From sequence record PP337211: DNA of 64,000 nucleotides. One strand, given 5' to 3'. The notes beneath the pieces are model-generated. The model ran no database searches and had not been told where the DNA came from. It saw nothing but the letters and a program-made list of their open reading frames with translations. Below are positions 1,966-41,700 of the stretch, piece by piece. The stretch comes from Escherichia phage ERS-1. The translations under genes and the position numbers were made by a program. Positions within the stretch are counted from its first letter, which is position 1; every line of letters starts with the position of its first letter.

Positions 1966-1967
1966 AA

Positions 1968-2678: not shown

Positions 2679-2685
2679 ATTTTCC

Positions 2686-2961: not shown

Positions 2962-2973
2962 CGGCGATACGTT

Positions 2974-3282: not shown

Positions 3283-3305
3283 AGAAAGAAAGGCCCAGAG
3301 GGCCC
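3283..3305 (-). terminator. short GC hairpin followed by UUUCUUUCU on the minus strand, just downstream of nrdH
   Basis: ggccc...gggcc inverted repeat at 3292-3304 adjacent to the nrdH stop (3309). Confidence 0.4.
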
Positions 3306-3308
3306 GTC

Positions 3309-3617
3309 TTAATCTTCTATGATATCTCTATCATATCCAAGTGAAATGAGAGTTTCTTTGAAGTGTTTAATGTTCTTTTGTCTAGAATCATTGATGAAAA
3401 TGACTGGATAACGAATGTTAAGAGATGTGAATCCAGCGCGTTTAGCAAGAGATACAATCAGTGGACGATCATACTCAATCTTACCATTATTTGTAAGAAC
3501 TTTATAGAAAGTAAAAGGAGCATTAAGCTCCTTTAGAAGTTTTGTAACTGATTGACATCCAGGACAACGACCTACTTCATCTGGAATTCCATAGACTTCA
3601 ATCTTGTTTTGTTTCAC
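3309..3617 (-). CDS. nrdH: NrdH-like glutaredoxin/redoxin (102 aa)
   Basis: CPGC redox motif near the N-terminus (GRCPGCQS), size and position next to nrdG as in T4; GTG start with AAGGA RBS. Confidence 0.7.
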   Translation of the reverse strand: MKQNKIEVYGIPDEVGRCPGCQSVTKLLKELNAPFTFYKVLTNNGKIEYDRPLIVSLAKRAGFTSLNIRYPVIFINDSRQKNIKHFKETLISLGYDRDIIED

Positions 3618-3619
3618 AA

Positions 3620-3832
3620 CTATTCCTTACTAAGAGCAGCATTCAGTTTGTTAGTAATTTTATCCAGACGCTCATTGAACTCGCTAGAAGACAGTCCTTT
3701 TTCTGGAGAAATCAAACTAATCACGAAAAATATAACAATAAAAGGAATAAGGAAAATAGCTCCAACTGTCATAAACAGAAAGAATGTTACAGTTGTAAGA
3801 AAATCAGCTAAACCTTTACGAAATTTATACAT
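3620..3832 (-). CDS. small membrane protein (70 aa), hypothetical
   Basis: Hydrophobic core FLTTVTFFLFMTVGAIFLIPFIVIFFVISLI in the ORF track translation. Confidence 0.45.
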   Translation of the reverse strand: MYKFRKGLADFLTTVTFFLFMTVGAIFLIPFIVIFFVISLISPEKGLSSSEFNERLDKITNKLNAALSKE

Positions 3833-3951
3833 ATTTTACCCTTAATTGATTAACCAAGCATTGATAAGCACTAAACTATACTGCGAATAAAATTCTGGAC
3901 CAAAATGAAAAATCATATCATTTATAGTGTCCACAATATAATTCAATTTAA

Positions 3952-4419
3952 TCATTTTCCCCACACCCCATCGGTATTTGACCAAAGTCGCTGATTATCT
4001 GATCCTCGCCACAACTTTTTGGTCGGAAGATTTTTCTCATACTTCCCATCAATAATAACATCAACATATTTAAGCATTTCTAGTTGTTTAATATCTTCAA
4101 ACTTATATCCTGTCCACAACCAAATGCTTTTATTGGGATAAAGATTTTTTACTGTTTGAACGATGCAATGAACAACATCTCGGTTATCAGGATAGAGAGG
4201 GTCTCCTCCAGTTATAGTTAATCCTTCTATATAATCATTATTCAAACATTCAATTAATTGCTCCAGTGTTTCACCAGTGAATGGAACGCCATTTCTAGCA
4301 TTCCAAGTACTACGATTATAACAACCTTCGCATTTATGCAAACAACCTGTAACGAAAAGAACGACCCTGCAACCAGGGCCATTCACAAAGCAGCACGGGT
4401 ATATTCTGTCATAATTCAT
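3952..4419 (-). CDS. nrdG: anaerobic ribonucleotide reductase activating protein (radical SAM), NrdG
   Basis: CLHKCEGC (CxxxCxxC) radical-SAM cluster motif; translation matches my memory of T4 NrdG. Confidence 0.85.
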   Translation of the reverse strand: MNYDRIYPCCFVNGPGCRVVLFVTGCLHKCEGCYNRSTWNARNGVPFTGETLEQLIECLNNDYIEGLTITGGDPLYPDNRDVVHCIVQTVKNLYPNKSIWLWTGYKFEDIKQLEMLKYVDVIIDGKYEKNLPTKKLWRGSDNQRLWSNTDGVWGK

Positions 4420-4446
4420 TGGTGTTTAATCCTATGCATGATTTCT

Positions 4447-4677
4447 TTATTTTTGCCTAAGATTAAATCCGCGTTCGTTCGGATTTCCCAAATATCCGCA
4501 TGTTCTTCTTATTGTGTTCATCTTTTTAGGATCAGTTTCTCCACAAATAGAACAAACAAACCCGTTTTCAGTAGGAGTCATTTCATGGGTACTTCCACAC
4601 GTAAAACATTTATCTACTGGCATATTAACGCCAAAATAATCTAAATGTTGTGCAGCATAATCCCATAGGTTCATGCC
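4447..4677 (-). CDS. nrdD: anaerobic ribonucleotide reductase NrdD, C-terminal ~76 codons only (5' part of gene absent)
   Basis: CxxC...CxxC zinc ribbon and glycyl-radical motif RRTCGYLG; upstream in-frame sequence is a poly-A tract and repeat, not NrdD. Confidence 0.7.
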   Translation of the reverse strand, partial: GMNLWDYAAQHLDYFGVNMPVDKCFTCGSTHEMTPTENGFVCSICGETDPKKMNTIRRTCGYLGNPNERGFNLRQK

Positions 4678-4780
4678 TTTTTTTTTTTTTTTAGGTGCTG
4701 TCGATTCTGTTTGTAGTCGTCTGTTTAACCTTAGCAATACTAACTGAACCAAGTACAAAACAGTCAATTGCTAAGGTTAA
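4678..4780 (+). repeat. J-unit copy 1: T15 + aggtgctgtcgattctgtttgtagtcgtctg + perfect 14-bp palindrome arms (ttaaccttagcaat / attgctaaggttaa) around a 28-nt loop
   Basis: Directly read; ~85% identical by eye to the unit at 25997-26098; arms identical in both copies while the loops differ. Confidence 0.8.
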
Positions 4781-4857
4781 GTCAATTGCGTAGTGAAGTA
4801 AGAAAGTTGAAAAAATCAGTTTACATTGACGATGATTTTGATTACAATACTTCTCAA
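4781..4857 (+). repeat. perfect inverted copy of 2731-2807 (internal fragment of the T4-like ORF 2686..2961)
   Basis: 77/77 nt identical to the reverse complement of 2731-2807 by manual comparison. Confidence 0.85.
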
Positions 4858-4922
4858 CCAGTTTAAGTTTAAATTAATCTTTTGAGGTTTGTCGGAACAA
4901 TTTATATTAAACTGGTTCTTTT
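4858..4922 (+). other. hairpin (ccagttta ... taaactgg) followed by ttcttttt; terminator-like but with a 41-nt loop
   Basis: 8-bp inverted repeat 4858-4865 / 4907-4914 and downstream T-run. Confidence 0.3.
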
Positions 4923-4927
4923 TAAAC

Positions 4928-4971
4928 AGGTGCTGTCGATTCCGTTTGTAGTCGTCTGTTTAACCTTAGCA
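4928..4971 (+). repeat. left 31-bp inverted repeat of block A (aggtgctgtcgattccgtttgtagtcgtctg) plus ttaaccttagca half-site
   Basis: 30/31 identical to 4693-4723 and to the reverse complement of 25689-25719. Confidence 0.8.
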
Positions 4972-5002
4972 TATGTCTAATGTCGAAGCCACACACCACC
5001 GC

Positions 5003-5850
5003 CAGAGTTAAAGGATCGACTCCCATGGAACACCAGCACCTTCGGCATCAAGCTGAGCAAGATCTTCCCGTGGCTGGTTCAGGAAGGAGCTGCCGGGATC
5101 AATCGACTTCCCGTGGCGGACCTCCTCAACGCGCCCGGAAGGTGAACAGGCCTGCGCATGACCTTCGCCCAGCTCCGTCCAGGATGACCTGGCGGTGAAC
5201 GGTCGCCTTGGCGGGACGTTCAACCTGCTTCGCCGCCGGAAGGATGACGAAAGCGACGGGACCGCGGGCGCCGCCGCACGGGCGACTGTCCGTGAATGCC
5301 CGAACCTCCCTGGCCGGCTCGGCATGAGTTCGCCCTTCACGTGGTGGGGCCTTCCACCTCCCGGAGGAAGGCCGGGCGTCTGGGCGTCCGGACGATGTCA
5401 CCTGCCTGGAGCTGCGGCGGCGGCTCGTCACGCCTGCTCGGCGAAGGACCTGATTGGTGGGGCCTGGCTGTCTGGGTTGAAGCCCGGGACAGGTACTGTA
5501 CGAACACCGAGCATCCGAGGACCCTCCGGTGATGGTGGACATGGCGGGGATCAAGCGCAAGGACGCCAAAGGAAACTACCTGGGCCGTCCTACGGGATGG
5601 GCGGGGCGAAGATGTGCCTGGGCTCGGGCTCCCGACGATGATGGCCGTGCGCGGCCCCCGCTTCCGCTGTTCGACGCGGCACCTGCCCGGAGGGTCGGCG
5701 CCTGGTCGCGGAAGGGGCGCGGAGGTTCGAGGCCGCGGGGCCGGAGGGTCAGGCCCTCCTGGACACCCTCCACCCGGGTGCCCGTTCGCATCGGAGAAGC
5801 TGGCGAAGGCTTGCGAAGCCCGGGCGAAGGCCGTGGGCGGCGTCACATGA
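5003..5850 (+). pseudogene. first coding region of block A, hypothetical protein, frame lost repeatedly
   Basis: Protein-like stretches in three frames in succession (LPWNTSTFGIKLSKIFPWLVQEGAAGINRLPVADLL; DDLAVNGRLGGTFNLLRRRKDDESDGT; MVDMAGIKRKDAKGNYLGRPTGWAG; FASEKLAKACEARAKAVGGVT-stop at 5850). Confidence 0.35.
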
Positions 5851-16968: not shown

Positions 16969-19900
16969 GAATCGACTTGAAGGATGGAATTCCCTTCCCC
17001 CCTTGCGGACCGCGAAGTGGCCCGGATCGCGGAGGAGGCGGCGACACACCGCCCGGGAGCCGGCGACTGTGACCTGTGTGGCGAATGGAGCGGGAGGCTG
17101 GTGGAGGAGTCTGTGCGCCCTGTCGGACCGCCCGGGCTTTGCCGGTGAATCGAAGAAGTTGTATGAGGGCTCTACTTCTTGCAGGCCCCCCGCCACTCTC
17201 CTTCGTTGCAGGTACCGGCCTGAAAATGGAGAACGGCGATGACCTGGATTTCCGCCTCCAACCCGACACCCGCGCCACTGCCCCGCTTCGTGGCCGGTTT
17301 CACTGTCCTCGCCTCTGGCGGTAGCCCTCCGCGACCCTCGGCTACGCCTTCAGCCGCTAGAGCGTGGTTCCTGGCCTGGTCCGGCGACTCTGCATGGCAT
17401 GCTGGAGGATGTACCGTGAAGGACGTGTACTGGAACCTGGCCCACTACCCCCGTCTGGAAGGCTCGGGTGCCCCCGCCCTCGCCCTCCGAAGTTCCTGGC
17501 GTCATCCCCGACCGTCGCCCGAATTGAAGCCCTGGGTGGAGTTCCGCGCCCCGAAGGCTGCGCCGGTGGTGAAGGCGGGAGCGCTTCTGCCAGGGGCGCC
17601 GGGTGCCCGCCCCGCGCCCGGGCTGGCCAGTCCTGATGGAGCTGGCAAGCCCTGGTCCGCCGCTGCTCCATGGTCCAGCCCCGCGAAAGTCCGGTCGGCG
17701 TAGGAAGGACGGAACCGATCCTCGCCGGCGAGCGCCTGGGCTCGCCGCGGGCCTTCGACCACCACCCGGGTTGAAGGAGCCCGCGTGTATCTGGAAGGAT
17801 GAGCCGCCGCTGGAGGGAAAGGCCCGAGGAAGATGGAAGCGAGTACCAGAAGCGGGAGGGCTCCGGCCCTCCCCCCCGCGGGTCGAAAAAAGTTGTCTGC
17901 TGGGCTGACCTTCTTCGGGTTGGGTCACTTTTTGTTAGGCCGTAGAAATGGAGAACTGAAATCAGCCGACTCCCGCCCAGGTCGCTGCCCGCGAACTGAT
18001 CGCAGGCTGGGGCTCGCCTCGCTGGGCGATGTCCGGGTTGTCAAGCCGCTGACCCTCCCGGCCGGAGTACCTCCGCGGCCCGCTCCTTCGCCGGTGACCG
18101 CGCGATCCGCCGGATCGGTGCCGGTCCTCCGCGGGACGTCCCCCTGGCAGCTGATCGGCTTCGGACCTCGCGGAGGTCGCCGGGCCCTCTGGAAGTCGGC
18201 TGCCGTTGACCGGGAGGGCCTGGCTCTCCCCCTCCCGGAGAAGGAGCCCCTTGTGAACCGGTGGCCGCCTTCCCCACCCCCTCCCCTCGTCCCCACTCCT
18301 GTTCATCGGAGTCGGGGAGCTGGGGCTGCTCTTCACCCTCCGCGAGACGGAGCTGAAGGCCGTCCCGGGTCCTGGCCCACGGACGCGGTGGTGAATGGCG
18401 TGTATCGGGGTCCTCCGAGGTCCGTGCTCCCGTGAAGAACCTGAGCCGGGACCGACGAAGCCTTCGAGAAGGCCCGGAAGCCTCTGCAGCGTATGGGCCG
18501 AGCCGGTGACCTCCCGCGACTCCCTGCGCGAGGAAATGAACGCGATTCACCGCGTGACGCTGCGGAGCTGGAGCGCCGGGAGCGCGAGCGGAAGGAGCGC
18601 GAGGACCGCCTGGGCCGCGGAACGGGCCGCGGAGGAGGAGGAGAAGCGCCTGTACCTTCCTGGGCTGGAAGTTTGCCTTCGGACCTACGCGTGGCGAGTT
18701 CCCAGGCCCCGCGGGCTGGCCTCCGCCGGTCGATCCAGCCTCCGGACTTCGAGGAAGGTGGCCTGATGCGCCTGACCGCCCGTGAGGTCGCCCGCCGGGT
18801 CCCTGTCCTCGCCCGCCGAAGCCGAAGCCCGACCTGTACGTGGGCGAGCCGAGAGTGCATCACCTTCGACGTGACCGTGGTGCGCCGTACCCTTGCGCCC
18901 GTGACGCCTGGAACGGCTACGGTATCGAGACGGTCCAGGCGTTGCGATGATCGACCGCGCGACCGGGGCCTGCCTCGTGTCCAAGTCCGGGGCCTTCTAC
19001 GCGGAGGAAGGCGAGGAGCTGAAGATCAAGGCCACCGTGAAGGAGCACGCGGAGCACCGCGGCCAGGCCCAGACCGTTGTCCAGCGGGTCGCGGTGCTGG
19101 AGGACTACCGGATGCGCCGGGAACCTCTCAGCTCGCGGTTGTTCGGAGGGCGAGCTGTACGCCGCCTGCACCAGGACCCCCTCACCGGGGCTCTTACGCA
19201 GTGGCCTTTGCCGGAGCCCTCGGGGAGGCCCGGCCGTCGCCCTCGTTGACTGGACTCGCTGAAGTGGACGGGTCACCTGCCCGGGCTTACCGCGTGGGTG
19301 ATTAAGCTTCGCGCTTGGCGGACGCCCTCGTGCGATCCTTCGGAGCTGACCGGGCGTTCCGCGCGTCGGGCGATGAGTTCGCCGTTATGGGTGATAGCCG
19401 TGAACGTCTGCCCGGGCTCGCTTCTCCGCGCGAGGGTCCGGGTTTCTGCTTCGGACGGGGATCGGAGGCGGCGGAGGCGGACGGCGACCTGGCGCGTCGA
19501 GGGGCGGAGGGGGAGCGGTCCGGCCTTCGGGGCCGCGCGAGGGCTCCTCGACCGCCTTGGGGTCGATCATCGACCTCCGGGGGGCTTTACTTCTTCGGAG
19601 GCCCCCCGTCACACTTCTTTGTCGGGCGGTCCGGACCCGGAGAACGGCTGCCGGGGCGGCTGGGCATTTACTGTCTCCCCTGTCCAGGCCACGGACCTGC
19701 GCCTCCAAAGTTCTCCCGACCTTCTTTCGGGCGTGACTTCCTCCGGGTCCAAACGGCCCTGGACCGCCTCCTTAGATGGCGGAGGAGTAGGACGGTGCGC
19801 ACTGGTTCATGTACAAGCTGTCCAACGGTGCGACTGACCTGGCCCCGGCGATCACCGACCGGAAGCTGCGACTGACCGTGGACACCAACGGCTACGGGCG

Positions 19901-20634: not shown

Positions 20635-20907
20635 ATGAGCGGACGCTACAAGGTCCTGGCCGGGTCCCAGTGCCCGGCCACCGCCGCTCGACTACACCGT
20701 GGTGGATGTCCGGAGCCTTTGCCCGCGGGCGCCTCGGGTGCCGTCGATGCGACTGCGAGACGTTTGGCGAGGAGGAAGCCCTGCGGTTGCCCGCGCCCGA
20801 ACGCGGCGATCGGCGAGTTGAAGTGTACCCTCGCCCGGGCCGCTCGCCTGTTCGAGGAGGCCCTGCCGAAGTCGTGCTGGGCGCCAGCGCCCTGGACGCC
20901 GGCGTGA
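20635..20907 (+). CDS. hypothetical Cys-rich protein; start with GGGAGGTG RBS
   Basis: GGGAGGTGAGTG-ATG at 20621-20637; MSGRYKVLAGSQCPATAARLH...; C-terminal part protein-like (PCGCPRPNAAIGELKCTLARAARLFEEALPKSCWAPAPW). Confidence 0.4.
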   Translation: MSGRYKVLAGSQCPATAARLHRGGCPEPLPAGASGAVDATARRLARRKPCGCPRPNAAIGELKCTLARAARLFEEALPKSCWAPAPWTPA

Positions 20908-21825
20908 TCCGCTGCTTGGTCAGGTCCCGGCGAAGTCCGCGCGGCCCTGAAGGCTTGCGCCCTTGTGCGGAGGGGAAGTGCCCCGTACGGCCCCGAACCG
21001 CCCCTGGGCGAAGGAGGGCGGAGCATCACCCCCGGGCGCTGACGCCCTGATCCTGAGTTCGTGTCGACCTGGGCGGCTAGGGGTCAAGCGGCTGAAGGAC
21101 CGCCGGGCGAAGATCGCCGGCTGTTCGCCCCGGGACGGACGGAAGGCGACCGCCTGGCCCTGTACGTCGCCGGGCGGGCGACCCTCCCGCTTCGACGCGG
21201 CCCGCTGCGCCGGTACGCGCCCGCCGCCCGTTGGACCTCTGCCGCGTGACGACCTAGGTAACGGCTCCGCCCGCGTGGTGCCGAAGTCGTAACGAGACCG
21301 GAGAAGGAGAAGCGGCGAAGCGGGGAATCTACCGCGGCCCGATCCCTGCCCGATTCGGCAGACCTGCGCTGCTGCGCGAGGCGACCCGGCCATGCTCGTG
21401 GCGGTTCGATGACGGAGCCTGACCCGGAGCGGCGACCCGATCCCGGCGGAGAAGCCCGAAGGCCCGCCCGCGGACGCCCTGGGCTACGGCTCGCGCCTTC
21501 CCGGCGGAGGACTTCGAGGAGAACCGGACCTGCCCGACCTGCGAGGCGACCGGCTTTCGGCGGCTCGCGCCGGGTCCTGACCGCTGTACCTTCTGCGACG
21601 GGACGGCAAGGCGGGAACCCGCCGGAGGAGGACGGCGAGGCTGCCGGGGTGCCCCGCCCGACCGCCCGCGCGCGGTCGGTGACCTCCTCCGTGGGCATGA
21701 CCCGCGACGGCTACCGGCTCGCCGGGTGGTTGTCGAGTGCGAGGACGGCGCTGTGGCGAACTCCGCCAGGAACGAAGCCGGGACTGATCCTGGGTCCGGC
21801 TCCCGGTGATCCCGGGAGGTGAACG

Positions 21826-22490
21826 ATGTCCCTGGCTGAGTTCGAGGACCGCGTGGCGGATCCCCTGCCTCATCGTGGTCACCACCGGGAGCCCTGACGT
21901 GCCCGCGAAGTGCTGCGGCCCGCCTGAAGATCGCTACCCGGCGGAAGGCGGATGCGGTGAATGGGAAGTCCGCGACCGCCGCGGACGCCCGCCCCCTGGC
22001 CTGGAGCGGGGTATGACGGAGGCGGAGCGCGAAGCGGTTGACCTGGCCGTGTTCGATCCGTGCGGAGGACCGGCGATGACCTGCGTGCGCGTCCCCGGGG
22101 GTCGCTTGCCGTCGCCCTCTTCCGGCTCCGCCTCGCGGACGGCTCCTGCGCGTCGGAGCCCTGCCACCTGCGGGCTGCCTCTTCCGCGACCGGCGGCTGG
22201 CGTCTTCACACGAGTGGTGGAGGACCCCTGCGATCTGCGCCGCCCTGGACTGGTCCTTCAACGAGGAAAACGGGCCGACCGCCCTCGCCGCGGGATGCCC
22301 CGCCGGGTGGTCCCGCGGTGCCGACTGGTCGAGTCGGAGGCCGAAGGCTGCGGAAAACCGGCGGGCTCCCCCTCCTTCTCCCTTCCACCGGGTGCGCTTG
22401 GGTTACGGGAGTGCGCTTGGGTTCGGCTCCAAAAGTATGAAGGGGTGCGTGGCGGGAAGTTGTAGCCGTCTGGGGTTCCTGCCTTGCGCT
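21826..22490 (+). pseudogene. hypothetical protein, last gene before island 1; frame-disrupted
   Basis: GGGAGGTGAACG-ATG at 21813-21828 (MSLAEFEDRVADPL then stop); protein-like text resumes in other frames (GMTEAEREAVDLAVFDPCGGPAMTCVRVPGGRL; ICAALDWSFNEENGPTALAAGCPAGW); stop at 22488-22490. Confidence 0.35.
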
Positions 22491-22597
22491 TAGGTTACTT
22501 GGGATTCTTACCTGAAACAAATTTGCCCAGGGTTGACCCGGCGGACCGGCCTGAGAATCCTTGTTGAGGCTTCCGGCTGTCCGAGGGCTTCCTGGGG

Positions 22598-22700
22598 CTA
22601 AGGTAAGTAAGTTAAGTAAGTTAAGTATCTATCTATCTATCTATCTATAAAGGGCTGTTTTATATGGCCTTTTTGCCCGCTTGACTTTTTACTTTTTCGG
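22598..22700 (+). promoter_or_regulatory. island 1: AAGGTAAGTAAGTTAAGTAAGTTAAG (stops in all three frames) + (TATC)6 microsatellite + TATAAA + TTGACT + T-rich run
   Basis: Directly read; AT-rich intergenic module between the 22490 stop and the SD+GTG start at 22927; homologous inverted copy at 63420-63515. Confidence 0.7.
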
Positions 22701-22926
22701 ACGTGGAAGTGAAGCGCGACCCCTCGAACCTAAGCGGAGGACGCCGCGTGCCTGCTTGGGTCTGTTGCCCGTCGCTCCCGCGCCTCCCCCGCGGGCGAGC
22801 GCGACCCGCCCTTGGCGAACGCAGGCTTCGCCAGACTCGCGGCGAGGATGTCCTTGGGCGTGAGGCCGGGACGGATCGCCGCGTGATGCGCGATTGACGG
22901 GCGGTGCTGCCCAAGGGGGAGGTGAT

Positions 22927-24000
22927 GTGCCCATTGAGAAACTGAAGCCGAAGCCGATGGTGCCCTTGCCCTTGGATGGAAGCAGTACCTGGAGTTGTTC
23001 CGCACGTCCCGACCTGGGTGGGTGGAAGTACCGTGCGCGGAGGCGTGGGCGTCTCCGGCTCCGCCGTTCCACTATGCCGTTGAAGAATGACCCGGAGTTT
23101 GCCCTGGCTCTGCAGGACGCCCGCCAAGCGTGGATTGATGAGATCCTGTTGCGCGGCCCTGAAGCGGGCGCGGGACGGCGCGGCAGCGCCCGATCGGTCG
23201 GGGAAGTTCAAGGACGAAATTATTGGATGAGCGGGTGTACTGTGATTCGCTGATGGCCTTGACGCTCCGCGCCCGCCGTGCGGAGTTCGGGAGGACGGGA
23301 GGACGTGGCCTGTATCACTGCCCTCGGCCCGGTGGGCGCCGATCGTCCCGGGCCCCGGCGTCGACCGGACGACTGGGAATTGTTTGGGACCTCGCCCGCG
23401 GGACCGTGGGCCGTCCGACCGGGAGGGCGATGTTCGCCTGGTCCCAAGCGGGCAGGCGGTTGCCATCGCCGCCCGCCCGGACTACCCGATCGAGCGGCGC
23501 GAGGCGGAGCCCGGCGAGCTGCGGGCACCACGTGGACCCGGAGACGGGAAGGAGTCGGAGGCGACCTGGTGCGGGTACGGGTTGCAGCTCGCCTTCCTCG
23601 GCGTCCCGATCTTCGAGGTGCTGTATGAGGGGACGCGCGGCCCGGGCAAGACCGACTGCCGATGGACTTCCTCCAGCACGTGGGGAAGGGCTACGGTTGG
23701 AGCGGCGGGGTCCCCGTTCCGTCTGGCAGGGACCCCCGCTGTCGGACGTGATCAGACACAAAACCAACAAGTGGTTCAAGCGTTTCTTCCCGGCTAAGTA
23801 CAGGCAAGGTGGGTTGGCGACCTTCCCGGCACGGCGAGGAGCTGCTGCTGTGTCGGCGGTCGCCGGAGGATTATTGGAACTACCCACGGCCACGTGCCCG
23901 TGGATTGGCTGGGAAGAACTCTTGGGCTGGGCCTGACAGCGCCACCGTTGCGACGTCCTGCCGCCGCTCCCAAGCCGGGGATGCCCCGCCGCGACCCGGG
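22927..24000 (+). pseudogene. P-loop NTPase-containing coding region (copy 1), candidate packaging/terminase-like ATPase, frame-disrupted
   Basis: GGGGGAGGTG RBS then GTG 22927; Walker A GTRGPGKTD at 23630-23656; further protein-like segments in shifting frames (MPLKNDPEFALALQDARQAWIDEILL; DFLQHVGKGYGW; SDVIRHKTNKWFKRFFPAKYRQGG). Confidence 0.35.
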
Positions 24001-25688
24001 CGACCGGCCCCACGGCCCCGCCCCTGGCTGGGTCAGGCCCGCTCCCGCCTCCCCCGTTGCGCGGTCGGGTGATCCTGGACGCGATGCGAGACGGCGAGCG
24101 CGAACCGCCCCGGGTCGCCTTCCCGGTTCCTTTCCCATGAGAACCGGGTTGCTCCTCGCTGACCCGGAGGGCCTGGTATTCGAGCCGCGGCCCGGAACCC
24201 CTCCGACTCGCCGCCTGGCTCCACGGCTCCTGCAGGTTGTTTGCGGGAGGATGTTGTACGAGGCTTGCACCGCGGGACGCACCGCGGCGCCCTCCGTCCC
24301 GCTGTCGGTGATCCCGAAGCGGTGGAAGATCGACCTGCGGCTTCCACCGGGCCGGAGCCCTTTGCCGTCCTGTGGTGGGCGGAGTCGAATGGGAGCCGTT
24401 CGAGCGGAATGGCCGCGTGTACGGAAGGTGCGGGGGCGATCTGTACCTGATCCTGTAGCGGGTACGGCTGGAACGGGAACGCGAGCAGGGCGTCCTGCGG
24501 CTCGCCTCGGAGGTCGCCCAGTGGGTGAAGGACCGGGAGGAGGATTGGGCGCTGGAAGGTCGGGTCAGCCCTGGCCCCCGCGACCTTCTCCTCACGTGGA
24601 GGTATGGGGCCTGGATTGCTGTGGAGGCGGAGAGAGGGTGTGCGCCTGGACGCCCGCGGGAGGCTGGGCTCGCGGGTGGGCTGGGAGGGGTTGGCTGTCG
24701 GAGGGCGCTGCCTCCGGCGGCGGGGACCGCGCCAGGTCCCTGGGCTGTTCGGTTTTTTCGACCCGTGCTGGTGTCGTCCAGACGGTCCCGCGCTGCCCCG
24801 CGATGAGGTGTACCTGGGATGACGTGAAGGCGGAGGCGGAGGACCGGTTGGTGACGCGACCGCTACCGCGTGCGGGGTAAGCTGCGTGGTGCGGTGGTGG
24901 CCCGCAGAGGCTCGGCCGGGTCCTCGCCTTCGGGCGAGAATCCGCGAACCTGGAGAACCGACGGCCGGCGAGACGGCAGCCCTGCCGACCTGCGGGGCGT
25001 ATTAACCGCGCTCCCGCGCTGGCCCACGCTCCAGACGCCGCCTGGGCGGGACCGAAGGGCGCGCGAGGCGGGCGAGACGTACCTACCCCGCCCTCGGAGG
25101 AGACGGCAGGGTGGGCTATCGGGAGCGCCTGGCCTCCGCCGCTCCTCCTCGGCGGTTGAACCTGGGCGCCTGGACCTGCCCTGCAGCGGAGCCCTTTGCC
25201 AGCCGATCAAGCCGGCCAGGACGTGCCCGGAGGCGATCCAGGAGATGATCCTGCCTGACGTGGACCTCCTGGGGCTGCCCACGCGTTCGCCCGTCCTGTG
25301 GTTCCGCCAGCCTATCCGGTGAGGCCCTGGCCTCCTCGTCCAGACCGCCTCGCCCGGCCCCGCGGAGGATGGCCTACCCGGACCTGGCGGATGACCGCCG
25401 GGAGGGCCTGCGCCCTGACTGGGTGATGATCCAAGCCGGAGGCGCCCGCTGTTGGCCCGGTCGGAGGTGATCAAATGGGGCCCGAGTCCTCTGCGTGCTG
25501 CTGTCCAAGTTACGAGGCGGAGGCAGGACGGCTTCGCGCAGGCTTGGGAGCGCTGTCCGCGTCCTGGAGCTGGGCCTTGTCCCGGCTCTGGCAGCCGGTG
25601 AGAAGTTGGTGGTCCCGCAAGGAGGAGTGGGTGCTGGCGGATGAGCGGGCCATGGGGCTGAACCACGTCCCTGTGGTTGCCTTTACGC

Positions 25689-25719
25689 CAGACGACTACA
25701 AACGGAATCTACAGCACCT
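25689..25719 (-). repeat. right 31-bp inverted repeat of block A (reverse complement reads aggtgctgtagattccgtttgtagtcgtctg)
   Basis: 30/31 match to 4928-4958 in inverted orientation. Confidence 0.8.
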
Positions 25720-25725
25720 GAGTAT

Positions 25726-25771
25726 GTATTGCTAAGGTTAGAGGGAAACACGATAGAATCCAACAGCACCT
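25726..25771 (-). repeat. partial J-unit, variant b, inverted (aggtgctgt-tggattctatcgtgtttccctc-taaccttagcaatac on the minus strand)
   Basis: Shares the aggtgctgt head and taaccttagcaatac tail with the J-units; middle resembles the 26008-26040 variant. Confidence 0.7.
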
Positions 25772-25996
25772 AAAAAGGTTCAACTTTTTACTAAATAATA
25801 AATGTTGTAGTATCTTCTTAAAACGAAAAATTTAATTTGCTTTAAAACCTTCCCAATTTTTTTTGCCTTTTTTTAACATACGTCAGAACATGGAAGAATG
25901 GTGGCCGTTTTTTACACTGTGAAGAAACAATTTTGAACTTTTAAATGACTTCCATTTATATTGTTTTAATTTCCTTTTTTCCCGTTTGTTGTTAAT
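25772..25996. other. AT-rich spacer without a convincing ORF, phage-like (T-even-like) composition, T-runs
   Basis: Sharp GC drop between two GC-rich blocks; only very short ORFs; ends in a T11 run leading into J-unit 2. Confidence 0.4.
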
Positions 25997-26098
25997 TTTT
26001 TTTTTTAGGTGCTGTTCCGGATTTATCGTGTTTCCTGATTAACCTTAGCAATACGTAACTGAACGAAGTACATAAAAACACCAATTGCTAAGGTTAAA
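25997..26098 (+). repeat. J-unit copy 2: T11 + aggtgctgt + variant spacer + 14-bp palindrome arms around a 32-nt loop
   Basis: Same architecture and arm sequence as 4678-4780. Confidence 0.8.
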
Positions 26099-26099
26099 A

Positions 26100-27216
26100 G
26101 GTTACACAAACCCTGGACAAGCAGCACCCTCCCTTTGCGGTGTTCTCCGGCTCCGCCTTGTCCTTTGAGAGCGGAGGGGTGTCGCTTGTTGATGCAGCGG
26201 GCGATGGCGAACATGGACCAGAGGTGCGGGTGGTCCGCGAGGGCTGACGGATGCTTCTCGTCCGGTCCTGGTCCCACCCTTCCGGTTGGCTCCTGGAAGA
26301 TGTTGGGTACTGCCTGTTCCAGACCGGGTCCGCGGTCGGGCCGGGGCTTCCCGGCCTTGCGGTCCGGTAGATGTCGCGCCGGGCCTTCAAGGCGGCGACG
26401 TCGTCGACGCGCGGGGTGGTCGGTGCTGGGTCCTGGTCGGGCCCTCCGATGACGGCCTTGATGTCCTTCAGGGCCGTCTCCCTGTGGATGTCGCGGACCG
26501 TCTCGCCGTCCGCCAGGGCCTCCCGCGGACCTGGGCGATGGCGCGGTGCTTGTTGGTCCTTCCCTGGTCCTCCTCGACGGGCTTCCCGCCGTCGCGCTCC
26601 TGGATGTGCTTTGGCTTCCAGCGGCGTGTCCTGAAGGCCGGGTCGCCGCCGTTCGCCTTCGACCGCCACCCTGCGTTGGTACCTGTAGATGGTGCTGATG
26701 GCCGCCCTCAAACCTTACCGCCTTCACGTCCGGGTCCCGCCCAACCAGCTCCGCGACGGCCTTGGCGGCGGCTTGGGTCTTGATCCGGTCTGGGCCGGCG
26801 GTGGTCGCTCCGGCGGCGGCGGTGTAGTCCCCGATGATGGCGATGCCGTCCGGGGCGTGTTGCCGGGATCGGCTTGTGGTCCGGGGACGATGACGTTGAT
26901 GACGCGGGCGGATCGCGGGCCAGGCTGCGCGGGGGTGTGCTCTGCCGGAGCCGTATGCCCTGCCCGTCGATGTACTTCGGTTGGTTTTCCAGTTTGGTTG
27001 AAAACGGCGGAGCCGGAGCCCCCGCCTGGGGTTGCTGTTGGACCCTGCGCGATCGGATGATCTTGCGCTCGCCGCCGTCCTCCTCCGGCGGGGCTGGTTT
27101 CCCGACCTCTGAGTCTGGGCGAGCGGCCTTCGCCGCCCCAGGTTCCGAACCGCGGGCTCGGCTCGTCGTCGTCCGCGCGGTGGAGACCTGGCCGGTGGGG
27201 GGCGGCTTCCCCTCAC
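26100..27216 (-). pseudogene. hypothetical protein, frame-disrupted
   Basis: Protein-like segments in two minus frames (DGIAIIGDYTAAAGATTAGPDRIKTQAAAKAVAELVGRDPDVKAV; EALADGETVRDIHRETALKDIKAVIGGPDQDPAPTTPRVDDVAALKARRDIYRTARPG). Confidence 0.3.
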
Positions 27217-27521: not shown

Positions 27522-28655
27522 TCATTGCTGGAGCCCTGCTGTAGCCCGCTTCCCGAATTTTGCGATTGCGTGGTCGTTGCCGACCGCGGCCTGGCGCTCG
27601 AAGCTGTGGCGGATGTCGTCGTGGGTGACGATCCCCGGGATTACCGGATTGACCTGATGGAGGTGTACATGCCCGACGCGCGCTCGCGATTTCGTCGGGA
27701 TGGTCCTGAAGGCTGATGGCCCCGGAGGCTCGTGCCGTTGTGGTCGTTGCCGGTGTTCGGTGACTTCTGGGCGTAGCTGTAGGGGTTCCGCTTCGGAGGT
27801 CGATGGCCGGATGGGGTAGCAGACGGCCGGGAAGAAGACTGGGCCGGGAGTTGGCGAAGGCTTCCGCCCCCGCCTGGGTGTTATGGGGCGCTTTGAAACG
27901 GTGAAGGGGTCCGTGAAGCTGGAGAAGCAGCCCGCGGCGGAGGTCCGGACTTCGAGAGGCATTTTGCGGACCTGCTCGCCGTAGTTCACCGGGACGCTGA
28001 TGAGGCCGGTGCCGCGGTAGCCCCGGAACCCGCTGTCGACGTAGAAGGCGCAACCCACTGTAGCCCCATAAGGCTCCGTCAGGATCGCCTCGCTGCAGGG
28101 GCGGGCGCGGGAGCCTCGCTTGTCGTTGTGCTTGTCCTGGCACCTGCCCTGAAGGGGCTTGGCGTTCGGGATGCGGATGTGCGGGAGGTAGGTGACGACC
28201 CTTTGAAGCCGGTAGGCCCAGCCCTTCACCTCCTTCTTGTCGTCTCTCCTTCGCGTTGCGGACCGTCCCCCCTGCCTTGCCGGAACTTCGCGCGCTGGCG
28301 CCGGTCCTGCACCCTTCTCCCCCATCGGGCCCGGAACTCCCGTTGGTTCGGTCCGGCGGCGAAATACTTGTAAGCCTCCTGAGCGGCTTCGCCGGTGCCT
28401 TCCTGCCCTTGCCTGCGTGGTCCGGTCATTCTCCTTCAACTGTGAAAAAAGTCTTGAGCGCCTTACCCGGAAGAAGTAAGCGGCGTTAATCGGCCCCGGC
28501 TCGCCACGTTGTTTCCGGGAGGTCCCCTGGCCTTCGCTCCTCCGAATGCCGGCGACCGGCGAACTGCCGGAACCGCGCGGCGACCCTTCCGCGTCATATC
28601 CTCCAGGTTGTCCTTTTGGGACCCGAGGGAACAAATGCTCGGGGTTGACGCACAA
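27522..28655 (-). pseudogene. hypothetical protein with possible metal-dependent hydrolase motifs
   Basis: Long protein-like stretch (KGWAYRLQRVVTYLPHIRIPNAKPLQGRCQDKHNDKRG...) and GHVHLH; family not identified. Confidence 0.25.
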
Positions 28656-30700
28656 CGGTCGGTCGCAGCGATGAACTTACGTTATCGCCGTCGGGATGGA
28701 CCGTCGAACCTGGCCGAAGGATAGCCGATGAGTGCCGTCTTAGTCTCATGTTGGCGTGCTGCTTATCATTGACTGGGAGCCGTTGGTTGGTCCCGTCTCC
28801 GGTCTTGATAGTGGGCGTCGAAGTAGGTGAGCCGGTCCGTCGATTACCCCATGTTCGGAATGATGGGGCGTGGGATGGACGAAGCCCGTTGAGCGGTTGC
28901 TGCGCTTTAGCTTTTGGGTTGGTAACGGGTTGGGGGAACGGGGCGGAGGCGTCCCGGGCTGCGTCCGCGTACCCGTAGCCCTCGTCGTATTACCGGTCAC
29001 CCGGTTGCCGGGTGCCTGGCCGCGGCCTTCCCCATGTACTCCCGGGTGGCGTCCTGGCTCTGCAGTATCCTTGTGGAGGATGACGTTGTAGTTGCGGGCC
29101 CGCCCCCTCCAAGCCCTCTTCAGTGCCCGGCGGCGACCGTCCCCGAGCTGAGACTGATGACCGGGGTCCCGGAGTCCGGGAGGTGCGGGGCGGTGCGGAC
29201 GGCCTCCGCGGGCGTTCTCCGTGATCGACTCCGGGAGCTTCGGGTGTTCGGCTGTAGCTGTCGTGGGAGTTCTCCCGTGCTTCTTGGCCGGACGGGGATC
29301 GCGGAGCGGCCCGCCGGCATGTCCAGGTCCGCCCCGAGCTGGCGAGCGCGCCCGCCGCCGGACGCGCGGGGCGTCCGCGGCCCCGTCGCGCTTGAAGCGG
29401 GGCCAGTAGTCCACGGCCTGTTTCCCAGCTGCTGGCAGGCGACCGCCCGGCCCGCCTTCGAGCGGTACGTGTCCGGCTGCCGATGGTGGTTCTTGTGGTC
29501 TCGATATGGGCGAGGCCCCGCCAATCTCGCTGAAGGACGGCACCGGGAGCGGGTGCTCTCCCCGCTTCAGGATCGGACCCCGTTGAGCGGGCGTTTGACC
29601 GGGCGTCGTTGACGACGTTGCTGCCTGGCGTGGTCGAGGAAGGCCCGTGCGGCGGAGGGCGGCCTGCCCGGTTCGAGCCCGCCGTCGATTTCCCGGATGT
29701 TGTTCCGTGGGTAGTGGCCGTTCGACGGTGGGGATTTTCCATTTACACAGCACCGTTCTACCTCTGCATGTTCGGCGGGTGGTTGCCCGGGTGGGCGGGG
29801 CGAGGTCCGCGAACCGCTGGTTTGCAGTCCGCCACCCGGACGCTTGATCGCCTCGCGCTTGGGCTTCGCGTTCTCCGGGTACTGTGAGCCTCGCGCTGCT
29901 CCGCGTTGCGGCCTTCTCCGGGTCCTTGAAGGTTAAGGCGGCGTCGTGCCGAAGTCGGCCGCACTTCACCGGTTCGACCTGTCCGCGATCTTGAAGCCGA
30001 TCCGGTCGGACCGAAGCCGTCGTGCTCCTGGGCGCGGGCGGAGACGGTGCGGAAGGGCAGGCGCTCCTCCGTCGCCCGGGCTCTCCCGTGCCCCGCCTCC
30101 GGGCGGTCGCCGTAGCGGGCCTGGAGGGAGGTTGCGGAGTCACGGTATCGGCCTGTAGCGGCGGTGCTCGCGTCCCCGGGGGCCTGTGCTCCCCCGGCGG
30201 GCGTCTCCTCCTCGTCGCGGGCCGCGACCTTCCCGGTGCGGCAACTCCTCGCCCTCCTCCACCAGGAAGGAGGCCACCCGGCGTGGTAGCTCCAGAATAA
30301 CCGAGGAGCCCGGGAGCTGCGGCACGGAGAAGTCCCCCGCCTCCTCCGCCCGAACCAGGGCCGTGTACACGGGTCCAGATCGCCGGTGGTGATCAGGTGT
30401 CGGCCGGGGTCGTCTCGATGTCCGGTCGCGGGGCAAGTTCTGCTCGGCTTTTTCTGGGTATGCGTGACTGATTTTCCCGGCTCAGGTCTTTGCGATGTCC
30501 GGTTCAGAGAATTGGCGACGAAGGAAGGCTCCGGCGGGACTTTTCGTCACGTGATACGGGAATGGACTTGTCTGGCGCCGCCGTCGCCGTCCTCCGTGAT
30601 CCCTGGTGAACCCGGCAGGAGCTTGAAGGGCTCCGTTCTGTATCCCCGCTCCGCCGGGCACCTGCCCGGCGGGGGTGCGGTGTGCGCTCCGAGGCTCCCG

Positions 30701-31363
30701 TTACCCTTGCCCTTGTCGGCCTGGCGGGTCTGGCGGGCGTCTGCCTTCGGCGGACTTTGCGGCTCGTGGGCCGGGATCGCGTGGCCTTCCGGGACCTCCG
30801 ACGTGGAACCGCTCGTGCCGTCCGCGTCGAAGGCGGAGCGGACCCCGCAGCCCTTTGGTCGCTTGTCCTGCTGAAGCCGGAGTGGGCGGTGGCTTCGGTC
30901 CTGGGCTTGTTGCTGCCCTTGGGCTTCGACCTGTTCGGCCGGTCCTCCTGTTTGGGCGGGACCCCCTACGTCGGGAGACGGCCGCTCCGAGCCCTCGCGG
31001 CGGGGGATCGGGGCGTGGCCCGGGCGGCAGGTTGGCGCCGCGCGGGCGCGGGCCTTCCTCCTCCGCGGACTTCGGAGCCTTCTGGGCCTTCGGAGGCGAC
31101 GGGCGGGGGTTGCGGTTTGTTTGCGGTTTCGACCTTCTGGGTTCGGCCTGCTGCTGCTCGGCACTTCCGGGCGCGCTTCGGCGGCGCCAGGCTTCTGTGT
31201 GGGGGTATGGCGGTGGTCTTGTCGGCAAGCGGTGGACGTTCGGGACGGACTTGCCGTTGCGGAAGGTGCCGATGACTTCGTCGGGACCTGCTCGACCGGG
31301 CCGGGCTGGACCTCGCTGGGAGGCTTCGGTGTAGGCGACGTTGTTGAAGTTGATGGTGTTCAT
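30701..31363 (-). CDS. hypothetical protein with strong RBS (AGAAGGAG, 6 nt, ATG at 31363); frame decays after ~50 codons
   Basis: RC of 31361-31378 gives AGAAGGAGCCTACC-ATG; N-terminus MNTINFNNVAYTEASQ... Confidence 0.4.
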   Translation of the reverse strand: MNTINFNNVAYTEASQRGPARPGRAGPDEVIGTFRNGKSVPNVHRLPTRPPPYPHTEAWRRRSAPGSAEQQQAEPRRSKPQTNRNPRPSPPKAQKAPKSAEEEGPRPRGANLPPGPRPDPPPRGLGAAVSRRRGSRPNRRTGRTGRSPRAATSPGPKPPPTPASAGQATKGLRGPLRLRRGRHERFHVGGPGRPRDPGPRAAKSAEGRRPPDPPGRQGQG

Positions 31364-31380
31364 GGTAGGCTCCTTCTGGG

Positions 31381-31460
31381 GTTGAGGTGCGATCTTGTTC
31401 GACCGTGAGAGAAATCTTAACCCTGCCCCCGAAGAAGTAAAGTGGTTTGACTAAACTTTT
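31381..31460 (-). promoter_or_regulatory. lower-GC intergenic island with sigma70-like elements (TTTACT-17-TAAGAT on the minus strand) and a TTGACT/T-run motif resembling the islands
   Basis: Read on the minus strand upstream of the 31363 start. Confidence 0.3.
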
Positions 31461-31949
31461 TCAGTTTCCCGTCCGAAGGCCAGGTGCCCGTTGGACGGCG
31501 GAGGGCGAACCGTTGGCGCCTCTTCCCAGAAGGCCCGGGCGGCGTCTCGTGCCCTGTTCTCCTGTACCAATGGTTGCGCCCCGAGGTGTGCGGGAACCCA
31601 GCGACCTCGAAGCCCCAGCGATGTTGGGTTGCACTGGTGGAAGTCCAGGTGCTGGGCCGGGTAGCCGAAAGCCTCTGCGACGTTCCGCCCAACGAGGATG
31701 ACGTGCCGACCGCCCAACAAGGGCTTCCCTCGCGGCTGCGGGCCCCGCGTCCCGGGCGGGCCGCTGTCGTCCCGCTTCCAGCGCCCCGGGAAGGTGTGGA
31801 GCAGGTGGTGCGGTCGAAGGTCTTGAGGTAGTCCTTGGGCGATAGGCCTGCCTGCTCGCCCGACGCCCTCCCGCGGAGGACCGCGGAGGGGAGCCAGGGG
31901 CCGGTCCGGGTCCGCGTTAGGTCCTGGCGCTGGCCGATCTGGGCTTGTT

Positions 31950-38699: not shown

Positions 38700-38795
38700 T
38701 ATGAAGTGGAGAGGCAGTGGAAGCCCTGTGGGGCTGGGGGTTTATATATTCTTCTTCTTCTTCTTTAACTCACTCAACTTACTTACCTTAACCCC
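38700..38795 (-). promoter_or_regulatory. island 2 (inverted): GGTTAAGGTAAGTAAGTTGAGTGAGTTAA + (GAA)5 + TATATAAA on the minus strand
   Basis: Same motif grammar as islands 1 and 3 but a different microsatellite; flanks are not clearly homologous to those of islands 1 and 3. Confidence 0.65.
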
Positions 38796-41700
38796 CGCAC
38801 GGCCTCTTGGAACCTAGGCAACGGTCGCCGGTCGCCTCCCTGGGGGTCCCGGCGATTTATCGGGCGAAGTAGAACTGAACTGGAGAAGTGAAGTAACCTA
38901 AGCGAGGAGGGTCGGAGCTGTTACGGCGCTGGGCCTTCCATGGCGCTTGGGGCTCAGACCTTCGGGCGTGAAGGTAAGTATCCCAGCGTTCTCATTTGCG
39001 GAACCTCTCCTTGAGGCCCAGGAGGATCGGGGAGACCAGGCTGCAGAAGAAGATGCCCAGCAGTGGCACGGTTCCCCTTCCGCTCCTGTCCTCCCCGGAC
39101 TCGCGCCACTGGCGGAGGTGTTGGAAGTCCCTCTGGCGGCCAGCGGCTGCACGTGTTGGCCCGAGCTGGACTGTGTTTGCTTCACGGCTTCTGCCGCTTA
39201 CGCTGTTGGCTCCGCGCGGACGGCCCGGCTTCCGCGGCTCGCTTCGCCGCGTCCTCGCGGTAGCTTCGCCGCCCGGGTCTGTGGCCGGGCGGCGATGTCT
39301 TCGACTTGCTCCGGGCGGGGGTGTCGGTCCTGCGCGGGTCACCTCGGCTGTACTCCACGGAGTCCGGGCCCCTGGGGGTTCAGATGGCCTGTCCTGTCCG
39401 CGTCCTTCCCCTGCGAGCCCGTGGACCGTGTCGGCTTGCCGGGTGGTGTCGAGTATCGGCCCCCGATCCGGAGGCGGCGCCGCCGCCGGCGGCTTCGCGG
39501 TCGTGCCGTAGCCGCGGAGGAACTTCCCGCGCCGCCGTGCCGGTAGGCGCTGTTGGCATCCTCCGGCGGAAATGGTCCTCCCCTTCTTCGGCGAAGACTT
39601 CTGCCGTCGCCGCGCTCGAATAGCGCGCGATCCGTTGGCCCGTACCCGGTTGTTCGTGCCGGTCGGGCTCGCCGGGCTAGGCCATGCTCCCCGTCCGCGG
39701 GCGAAGCCGGTTGGGCGGTCGTGGTCGCGGACTTCGCGTGGCCCTTAGAAGGCCGTCGGTCCTGGCGGAGGAAAGACTGAAATTGGTTGTAGGGCGCTGG
39801 TCCCCCAGCGCGCCGTTCCCTTGATGCCCGTTCGGGCCGTCACTGATAGCCGTTGGGACCTTCGGTACAGTTTGGGTATGTTCCCGAGTCGCTGTTCCCG
39901 GTGCGACGTGGGATCGGTAGCTGTCCTGGCCGTCGCGGACCGCCGTGACCTCATCCGTTCCGGCCGCGGCGTTCTCCGTCGCCTCGTCGGTCGGTTTCTG
40001 CCGGCGCCGGTTGTGCCCGGCTCCGATTTTCGGGAGCGCGCCGCCGTTGGCCGCGTAGATGTCCGCGGTAGGTGTACCCGGCTCCGGCGATGTTCGCCGC
40101 GGAGTGGTCGATGACGGATGGATCCGCTGCGGTCCGGTCGCGGTGTGCCGGGTACAGGCTTGTCTCTCCGAGGATAGCCGAAGGATACTGGAGAACTGCT
40201 TTGCCGGAAGTTCCCGGGAGCGTAGGGGCGCGCGAAACGGCTACCAGCGCCTTCGAGTCCTCCGGCGGGCGGAGGTGTCCTACGCCACCCGGACTGGCCG
40301 GCCCTTCGCGGCGATGGTCTCGCCGCCTGTTATACGGAGCCGGTCGGCGCGCGGGCGTCCTCCGCGGAACGGAAACTGCGCCCCGGCTGCGCGTTCCGCG
40401 CAGACGAAGAATCGAAAGCAATCCCCACCCTGTCACTGACCCGTTCACCAGGTCGATAGCGTCCCTTGCCTGCGATTTCGTTGTCGGTTGCCGTCCACCG
40501 CTCCGTGGGGTTCGGTGCGGGAGGGCCTGGTTGGACCTGCTGGATGGAGGTCTGTATGGGCGTGATCGCGTTCGTCCTGGCCAGCGTGCGCCGCGGGGTC
40601 GCCGGTGGCCGCGTATGCGTAGGACCCGCCCGTGGCTTGTCCCTGGTCGGGGCTCTGGAGGTACTGGCGGGCTTGCCCTTTGCCGATCCAAGGCGGAGGC
40701 GTTGTCCAGCGCCTGGAGCTCGCCGAGGCTCGTTCGCCAAGTTGGAACAGTTCGCCTCCTCCGTAACGGCGGAGGGCGAACGGGTTGGGCGCTTGAACCG
40801 GGTCCTCTGCCGAGCCCTGGTTGCCCGTAGGTGGAGGACGGAAGGCCAAGGCTCGGTTGTGCTCCGCCGCATTCACCCGCTGGGCCGGTCTGCAAGTTCA
40901 CCCGAGGCCGCGGAACCATGTCGGCGAGGTGGTGCTGGTCCTGTAGAAGCGGTGCCACTTGGGCGTGTTGGCGCGTTCCGGCTTCCCCGCATGTGACGCG
41001 TGCGAAGGGGGTGGACTTCTGGGGAGGCTGCACCCGTGTTCGCTGCGTTCGCCGCGGTGCTTCATCCCTGGACAGTTCGCCGTCTGGCTCGCCACGCTCG
41101 TTGGGCTTGAATCGCTGCGAGGTCCTGGACGGGCCGGAGTTGCTCTGTGGAGCCTTGCGGACGGTAGGTTGTCGTGATTGTCGGTTTCTGCAGAGCCCGG
41201 GCGCTCGAGGACTCTGCTGGATCCGCGTCGGACTCGTCGCAACCTGCGGAGGTCGCTGCCAGCCTCGCCAAACCGCTTTGCCCCTTAATCGACCAGTTGT
41301 CGGTTGCGTGTAGGCAGGTTGCGGCTGGGTGGTGGTGTTGTGTACACGAAGGACTGATGGAGCTCCTGCTCGTCCGTCAATTCGGTCCAGGCGGCCGGCT
41401 CTTCCCGCGCTAAGGCAGGTCTGCCGCGCGAAAGGGGCGTCGTCGCGCGTTGATCCGGTACTCCGTCCCAGTCCGGGTTCGTCTGCTGTTCTCCGTGCAT
41501 GACGTGGGGGCGGGGTTCGCTGAGCCGTTGACGTCCCGCCTTCGCCGGATACTTGGCCTTGCCCGGAGGCGCTTCGCCTTTTGGCGCCTGGCCTTCCGAT
41601 AGGTGGCGGCCTGGCGCCCCTTCCGAAGGTCTGCCAGCACGCCCCGGAAGGCCCGGTATGACCGTGCCGAGTTTGGACTGGAGGTAGACTGTTCGCGGCC

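Follow-up and report, generated by a model that had tools for sequence, protein, structure and literature searches.

A terminase large subunit P-loop of a Yuavirus phage, seen twice in what appears to be a chained nanopore record

The terminase-portal region in two copies

The peptide GTRGPGKTD occurs once on each strand of the window, that is, the whole stretch of 64,000 nucleotides analysed here. It is the Walker A motif of the N-terminal ATPase domain of a terminase large subunit (TerL) from a Yuavirus, an M6/YuA-like siphovirus of Pseudomonas aeruginosa. The original prediction described this peptide as a Walker A motif conserved in two inverted copies. This is borne out by translation on both strands; the plus-strand position (23630-23656) is exact, and the minus-strand one, placed at 62465-62491, is one base off. 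The gene lies between the terminase small subunit (TerS) gene upstream and the portal gene downstream, at the head of the structural module. The TerS-TerL-portal order, which is annotated in the phages AN14 and Churro, was recovered by tblastn in both copies. Copy A belongs to the first and copy B to the second of two nanopore reads described below, and their features are as follows.

22583-22664, plus: AT-rich island upstream of TerS, a genuine Yuavirus intergenic element (second reading at 63449-63527)
38765-38806: paralogous AT-rich element upstream of the helicase gene
22925-23430, plus: TerS gene, copy A, which holds GKFKDEII (tblastn and coordinate map; the reference protein matches phrog_4044, E 3.6e-61)
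62696-63196, minus: TerS gene, copy B (coordinate map, tblastn)
23430-24906, plus: TerL gene, copy A, with many frameshifts (coordinate map to Churro 29367-30914; tblastn frames +2 and +3, E 1e-33 to 1e-39)
61256-62696, minus: TerL gene, copy B, with many frameshifts (coordinate map; tblastn frames -1, -2 and -3, E down to 1e-51)
23630-23656, plus: GTRGPGKTD, Walker A or P-loop of TerL, copy A, read 1 (translation; maps to Churro TerL residues 71-79)
62466-62492, minus: GTRGPGKTD, Walker A or P-loop of TerL, copy B, read 2 (translation; coordinate map from Churro)
23901-23921, plus: WIGWEEL, Walker B with the catalytic glutamates, intact in copy A only (peptide search)
62221-62236, minus: Walker B equivalent in copy B, garbled and unreadable (three-way alignment)
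23456-23488, plus, and 62637-62669, minus: AVAIAARPDYP
23201-23224, plus, and 62907-62930, minus: GKFKDEII
23686-23700, plus, and 62424-62438, minus: KGYGW
23775-23801, plus, and 62327-62356, minus: FKR.FP..KY
24963-25688, plus: 5' part of the portal gene, copy A, truncated at the end of read 1 (coordinate map; the reference protein matches DUF4055, E 5e-42, and is a portal in the AN14 annotation)
59775-61201, minus: portal gene, copy B (coordinate map, tblastn)

The four companion peptides listed above, which had been proposed to be retained near the motif, were all found in both copies by peptide search. The surrounding frames do differ between the copies as first described: the inverted alignment of 22286-25472 with 63831-60720 has 70.7% identity over 3333 columns and contains many indels, and a reference TerL requires two to three frames per copy in tblastn.

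The AT-rich island lies about 1 kb upstream of the motif and, in Churro (OL763419.1), between gene 51 and TerS. The suggestion that the motif marks the first major gene of a transcription unit is near but inexact, since TerS comes first after the island and TerL second. Two intergenic regions of Yuavirus genomes (about 28480-28560 and about 54010-54070 in Churro) carry this type of element, in which TTAAGGTAAGTAAGTTAAGTAAGTTAAG precedes a few tandem units, (TATC)n or (GAA)n. The element may act as a promoter or regulatory site.

Identification of the terminase large subunit

Taken alone, the Walker-A-like pattern says little in this DNA. Over the six frames of 5042-64000, [AG]xxxxGK[ST] was matched 7 times, compared with 8.5 +/- 2.8 times in composition-matched simulations, and the pattern alone is thus not above chance in such G+C-rich sequence. 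What identifies GTRGPGKTD as genuine is homology with a known gene and not the pattern itself.

Matches to the segment 22286-25472 were found in 127 phage records and extend over 80% or more of the segment in 51 of these; the best identity is about 82%. The best matches are all Yuavirus phages of P. aeruginosa (Churro, PaTs-2, AN14, Lydia, and others), and the annotations matched are terminase small subunit, terminase large subunit, and portal. Copies A and B show about 82% and 80% identity, respectively, to the Yuavirus TerS-TerL-portal region. The TerL of these phages (Churro, AN14, M6, YuA, and Lydia; Mesyanzhinovviridae) is the same gene as the window copies, with identical or nearly identical Walker A, Walker B, and flanking peptides. 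The DNA is colinear across the three genes, and its raw identity of about 82% is limited by read errors. In Churro TerL, which reads ...FEVLYEGTRGPGKTDCLLMDFLQHVGKGYGSEW...WFKRIFPGAKY...YPWIGWEEL..., the motif occupies residues 71-79, AVAVAARPDYP lies at residues 10-20, and KGYG(S/W) and FKRIFPGAKY follow the motif. GKFKDEII is encoded upstream of TerL, in the TerS gene. In a three-way DNA alignment, the P-loop codons are identical, base for base, in Churro and both window copies.

The original prediction held that no family could be assigned by eye, and the window's own reading frames indeed gave little. A Pfam search with ten long open reading frames of the window, including both that contain the motif, returned only two short sub-threshold matches (RNR and Pam3 gp34), and a search of PHROGs with the window frames returned none, as the frames are too broken for single-frame translation. 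The family was reached only by frameshift-tolerant comparison with a clean reference; a consensus of just two noisy copies cannot recover the terminase reading frame. Reference TerL matches the profiles of PHROG 2 (phrog_2, terminase large subunit; E 2.5e-36) and PHROG 979 (E 8e-30), and all of its PHROG matches are terminase large subunits. Pfam Terminase_6N aligns with it from residue 69, at the P-loop, with 18.3 bits against a cut-off of 22 bits, and some TerL homologues carry a precomputed PF03237 match. No NCBIfam profile matched the reference protein. A search of PDB sequences found no match with the single sequence, and the best match with a profile was D6E at only E 0.14. Because the Pfam match is weak and neither NCBIfam nor PDB sequences gave a significant one, the assignment to TerL is based on PHROGs, on structure and gene order, and on public annotation.

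Among 36 homologues, down to 62% identity, the P-loop residues R73, G74, G76, K77, and D79 never vary and G71 and T78 hardly do; R188 is invariant as well. Walker B (WIGWEE, residues 165-170) has I166, E169, and E170 invariant in these homologues, and its glutamate pair is predicted to contain the catalytic residue. The acidic residues D315, D400, and D497 are also invariant. An AlphaFold model of reference TerL, built from the homologue alignment, has a mean pLDDT of 87.9. It displays P-loop geometry at the motif (strand 66-71, loop, helix 77-86) and a Walker B strand at 165-168. Foldseek against the PDB ranks the D6E TerL first (E 3e-16), followed by HK97, Sf6 gp2, and T4 gp17, and it also matches the P74-26 ATPase domain and the P22 nuclease domain (4dkw, TM 0.72 on target). 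Of the 35 matches with E <= 0.001, nearly all are packaging ATPases of viruses, and large terminases form the majority. The alignments are full-length for the D6E, Sf6, and T4 TerLs. The C-terminal domain of the model is predicted by Foldseek to be an RNase H-like nuclease. Four features expected of a TerL were found: an ASCE ATPase Walker A on a strand-loop-helix, a Walker B, a C-terminal nuclease domain, and the appropriate gene neighbourhood.

With the solved TerLs (D6E, PDB 5oe8 and 5oeb; HK97, 6z6d; Sf6 gp2, 4iei; T4 gp17, 3cpe; P74-26, 4znl), reference TerL shares a two-domain fold, an ASCE P-loop ATPase plus an RNase H-like nuclease, at Foldseek E values of 3e-16 to 1e-6, although sequence identity is only 10-16%. 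Unlike these proteins, the Yuavirus model has an extra N-terminal beta-rich segment of about 45 residues before the ATPase core. TerL of M6/YuA-like phages is already known: dozens of genomes carry an annotation of it, and a comparison of its fold with that of D6E TerL has been reported. It was reported for phage Lydia that D6E is the nearest structure to Yuavirus TerL and that R188 corresponds to the trans-arginine finger R158 of D6E (PMC11946847).

The original prediction left open whether the ATPase serves packaging or replication. A P-loop from a replication protein (an AAA+ initiator, helicase loader, or helicase) might be considered, given that Walker A alone cannot separate P-loop families and that helicase and primase-helicase genes are present elsewhere in the phage. 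However, the gene sits between TerS and portal, its PHROG matches are confined to terminase large subunits, and no AAA+, initiator, or helicase-loader match was found among the Pfam, PHROG, and NCBIfam profiles. Helicases such as RIG-I appear in Foldseek only above E 1e-3 and over the ATPase core only, whereas the C-terminal nuclease domain matches that of P22 TerL. A replication protein is therefore extremely improbable, and the packaging half of the proposal stands. Terminases hydrolyse ATP at the Walker A/B site and pump DNA through the portal into the procapsid; TerL partners with the small subunit and docks on the portal, and its RNase H-like C-terminal nuclease cuts the DNA. By analogy with this family, the motif would serve here in the ATP hydrolysis that drives DNA packaging.

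Composition of the record

The G+C content rises from 33% to 68% at about 5 kb, and comparison with reference phages and with published adapter and barcode sequences divides the window as follows.

1-4680 (or 1-4667): T4-like coliphage read, 97% identity to KFS-EC3, nrdD-nrdG towards gp55; internal control for read quality
4681-5041: join 1, with NB02 at 4701-4724 and 4936-4959, a read-start adapter at 4733-4759 (minus), a 145-nt T4-like insert, and a probable NB07 at 5011-5033
5042-25688, plus: nanopore read 1 of a Yuavirus genome (Churro 10242-31711, about 82% identity)
25688-26130: join 2, with NB02 at 25688-25711, NB04 at 25741-25763 and 26016-26038 flanking a 233-nt T4-like insert, a read-start adapter at 26047-26074 (minus), and an exact NB05 at 26098-26121
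4781-4925 and 25773-26005: the short T4-like inserts within the joins
26131-64000, minus: nanopore read 2 of a Yuavirus genome, in the opposite orientation and extending past the window end (78-83% identity to Churro)

Unrelated inserts are separated by internal units of the form AAGGTTAA-barcode-CAGCACCT, by the read-start adapter AATGTACTTCGTTCAGTTACGTATTGCT, and by end adapters that are truncated. Published papers give the same adapter sequences, the same NB02, NB04, and NB05 barcodes, and the same AAGGTTAA-NBxx-CAGCACCT arrangement. NB02, NB04, and NB05 were mapped with 0-4 errors, and the barcode at 5011-5033 is presumably NB07. The 33-nt adapter-plus-flank sequence GTACTTCGTTCAGTTACGTATTGCTAAGGTTAA occurs exactly at 26039-26071 (minus), where none is expected by chance. 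The same adapter-barcode units characterize unsplit or chimeric reads from native-barcoded ligation libraries of the SQK-LSK109/EXP-NBD104 type. In contrast to simple unsplit reads, an end-type NB02 at 25688-25719 is fused straight to phage DNA without an adapter, which suggests a ligation chimera besides unsplit reads. We infer that the record is a chain of at least five library molecules bearing at least three, and probably four, different barcodes, and that it came from a multiplexed phage run as an unsplit or chimeric read. An exact 52-nt string of the window had no match in viral, metagenome, or genome collections, and no record of the phage collection is identical to the window.

The aligned part of read 2 (26188-63823, minus) corresponds to Churro 5651-5 and then, the record being circular, to 61205-28187. 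Reads 1 and 2 overlap solely on Churro 28187-31711 (about 3.5 kb), and the "inverted repeat" is exactly that overlap. The claim of two inverted copies in one genome therefore gives way to two independent nanopore reads of a single-copy locus, joined via adapters and barcodes. In the account proposed here, the window would consist of several barcoded library molecules chained in one unsplit or chimeric Oxford Nanopore read, two of which would be opposite-strand reads of the same kind of phage genome, so that the motif would be seen twice and inverted.

If the packaging module were truly duplicated in inverted orientation, as in terminal inverted repeats or a rearranged element, and its decaying pseudogenes kept a few motifs under selection, the window would also contain a 3.3-kb inverted repeat at 70.7% identity with short peptide motifs left in both arms. 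The sequencing adapters and barcodes between the segments speak against this reading, as does the fact that each arm simply terminates a long segment that follows a single-copy Yuavirus genome colinearly. Furthermore, the lack of a stable frame extends to all genes over about 59 kb and not just to the repeat; a codon-phase plot of G+C content shows no stable codon phase anywhere in 5-64 kb. Non-coding or synthetic DNA was considered as a cause of the absent codon phase and rejected, as read errors explain it. A whole-read palindrome (missed hairpin) was also rejected, as the repeat spans only 3.3 kb.

Several other features of the window touch on its composition. The direct repeats at 4681, 4916, and 25995 are ONT barcode-and-adapter units and not genomic repeats, and the inverted repeat 2725-2807/4781-4863 is a second short molecule from the same T4-like locus and likewise not genomic. 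The alignment with Churro has gaps at 17575-17803, 20640-20827, 28479-28862, 45599-46055, 46502-46920, and 55964-56560, which may be real indels, variable genes, or stretches too garbled to align. When the phage collection was compared with 21000-27000, four records from unrelated hosts matched a small part at 99% identity or more, and the match list includes one Klebsiella, one Bacillus, and one Yersinia phage; leftover adapter or barcode sequence in deposited genomes is one possibility. Rfam and tRNA scans found nothing.

Error profile of the two reads

In a three-way alignment of the overlap, Churro and both copies agree in 61% of columns, copy A alone differs in 14.5%, and copy B alone differs in 18.1%. 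Differences shared alike by both copies make up 3.8% of columns, compared with 32.6% private to one copy in total, and the share of columns at which neither copy matches the reference is 6.5%, compared with 5.1% expected under independence. As the differences are mostly private to one copy, they represent read errors rather than divergence. The columns that differ from Churro in both reads alike, at most 3.8%, may be real strain differences, and the remainder is noise.

The errors are concentrated on one base. In the window orientation, reference A is called correctly in only 69% (read 1) and 59% (read 2) of cases and is mostly read as G or deleted, compared with 90-92% for reference G. The error rate is 0.32 and 0.42 at A, falls to 0.05-0.08 at a distance of 7 nt or more, and does not depend on the distance to T. 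The full 28-nt read-start adapter with its T-rich leader reads on the minus strand, and the end adapters are cut to AGCAAT in that orientation. This adapter polarity indicates that the window minus strand was the one sequenced, and the poorly called base is thus T. Modified adenine (for example, 2-aminoadenine) was ruled out, as adapter polarity makes the affected base T and the TG context fits the literature.

On the sequenced strand, 65-80% of T before G is miscalled, compared with 4-18% of T before C. The T of TG is correct 24% of the time, compared with 94-96% for T elsewhere, and all 16 NTGN contexts have error rates of 58-83%. In TC, TA, and TT without a TG within 8 nt, the error at T is 4-6%, and positions more than 8 nt from any TG have an error of 7%, with any real divergence from Churro included. 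The profile over 16 contexts correlates between reads 1 and 2 (r = 0.96), and the errors show no link to codon position. The errors are strand-specific, falling only at CA on the window plus strand and never at TG. An assembled or polished contig was rejected on this ground, because a consensus of two strands would not show strand-specific errors.

The same rule accounts for which motifs survive. Measured over 27 nt at a time (27-nt windows), the accuracy of a copy is 0.90-0.93 where TG is absent and only 0.55-0.66 where three or four are present, and it correlates with the number of TG on the copy's own sequenced strand (r = -0.65 and -0.63) and not with that on the other strand. On the strand read in copy B, the P-loop codons are free of TG, and on that read in copy A they have a single one, whereas the Walker B codons are TG-rich and were lost in copy B. 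Retention of the motif therefore reflects composition and not selection. In the proposed account, basecalling would fail at the T of 5'-TG-3' on the sequenced strand and break the frames differently in each copy, while TG-poor stretches such as the P-loop codons would pass intact through both reads.

These observations also bear on the inverted duplication. In a genuine inverted repeat, the two arms would lie in one native molecule and share their differences from the reference; here the arms belong to separate molecules, and the differences are private, follow a strand-specific TG rule without regard to codon position, and spare motifs according to their low TG count and not their function, Walker B being lost in copy B. 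A true duplication is thus very improbable. The differing frames are basecalling errors and not divergence, and both the inverted duplication and the frame decay appear to be artefacts that arose when DNA, most likely hypermodified, was read as a raw chimeric nanopore read. It is highly probable that the motif is the Walker A of a Yuavirus TerL, seen twice through a chimeric or unsplit nanopore read, with its frames broken by TG-centred basecalling errors.

The practical value of this case is a warning that a raw chimeric read can mimic a strange element: the window shows two inverted gene copies in apparent decay, lacks stable frames, has AT-rich islands, and jumps in composition at 5 kb. Other findings in the window (inverted repeats, "pseudogenes", skew shifts, and the direct repeats mentioned above) need to be weighed with this in mind.

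Thymidine hypermodification as the probable source of errors

Yuaviruses replace about 30% of T by 5-(2-aminoethyl)uridine (5-NedU), as described for M6 (PMC5889632). It was also reported from restriction studies that hypermodification via the 5-hmdU DNA kinase/aGPT-Pplase2 pathway prefers TG, and restriction digests of phage M6 pointed to TG or TC as the modified context. Churro contains pathway genes encoding aGPT-Pplase2, a PLP enzyme, and a thymidylate synthase homologue. Taken together, the TG-centred errors, the known Yuavirus modification, and these genes indicate that modified TG thymidines (5-NedU or a relative) most likely defeated the basecaller. The footprint of the 5-NedU pathway known from M6 would then fall here on the T of TG, and 32.3% of all T lie in TG.

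Even with the TerL and the chimeric read as stated above, the errors may be due to generic poor quality, or to a weakness of the basecaller on G+C-rich DNA, without any modification. G+C-rich genomes are generally basecalled less well, and the error far from any TG is still 7%. Nevertheless, the indel rate of the T4-like read from this record is only 0.3%, and most of its substitutions are transitions, which argues that generic poor read quality is not the cause. In addition, the errors are focused on one dinucleotide of one strand (76% at the T of TG, compared with 4-6% elsewhere), their profile recurs in two independent reads, the TG share of T, 32%, matches the published level of about 30% 5-NedU, and TG is the published preferred context. 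Generic error is thus unlikely. A basecaller quirk specific to this DNA is a less likely source of the TG errors. The TG-specific basecalling failure agrees with known hypermodification biology, and such records would hold usable modification-site information.

The footprint may go further and amount to a strand-resolved, single-molecule modification map. We lean slightly towards a reading in which essentially every T of TG, in all 16 NTGN contexts, is modified and T in TC, TA, and TT is not, with the level of about 30% being the TG share of T. The M6 restriction data allow TC, whereas TC carries no excess error in these reads. If this reading is correct, the specificity would be TG only, narrower than the "TG or TC" of the M6 restriction digests, and the roughly 30% of modified T would be explained as the share of T lying in TG. 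This TG-only error footprint is the sole mildly new aspect of the analysis, and it refines but does not overturn the restriction-based inferences.

T-even phages are expected to carry glucosyl-hydroxymethylcytosine, and the long T4-like insert shows no error excess at G, which is C of the sequenced strand. The plus-strand AT skew is -0.3 to -0.4 over 26001-64000 and is also negative in read 1, which has the opposite orientation. Reference A is under-called (10.7-14.8% of read bases, compared with 15.9-19.6% of reference bases), and the negative AT skew is hence an artefact and not a replication or transcription skew.
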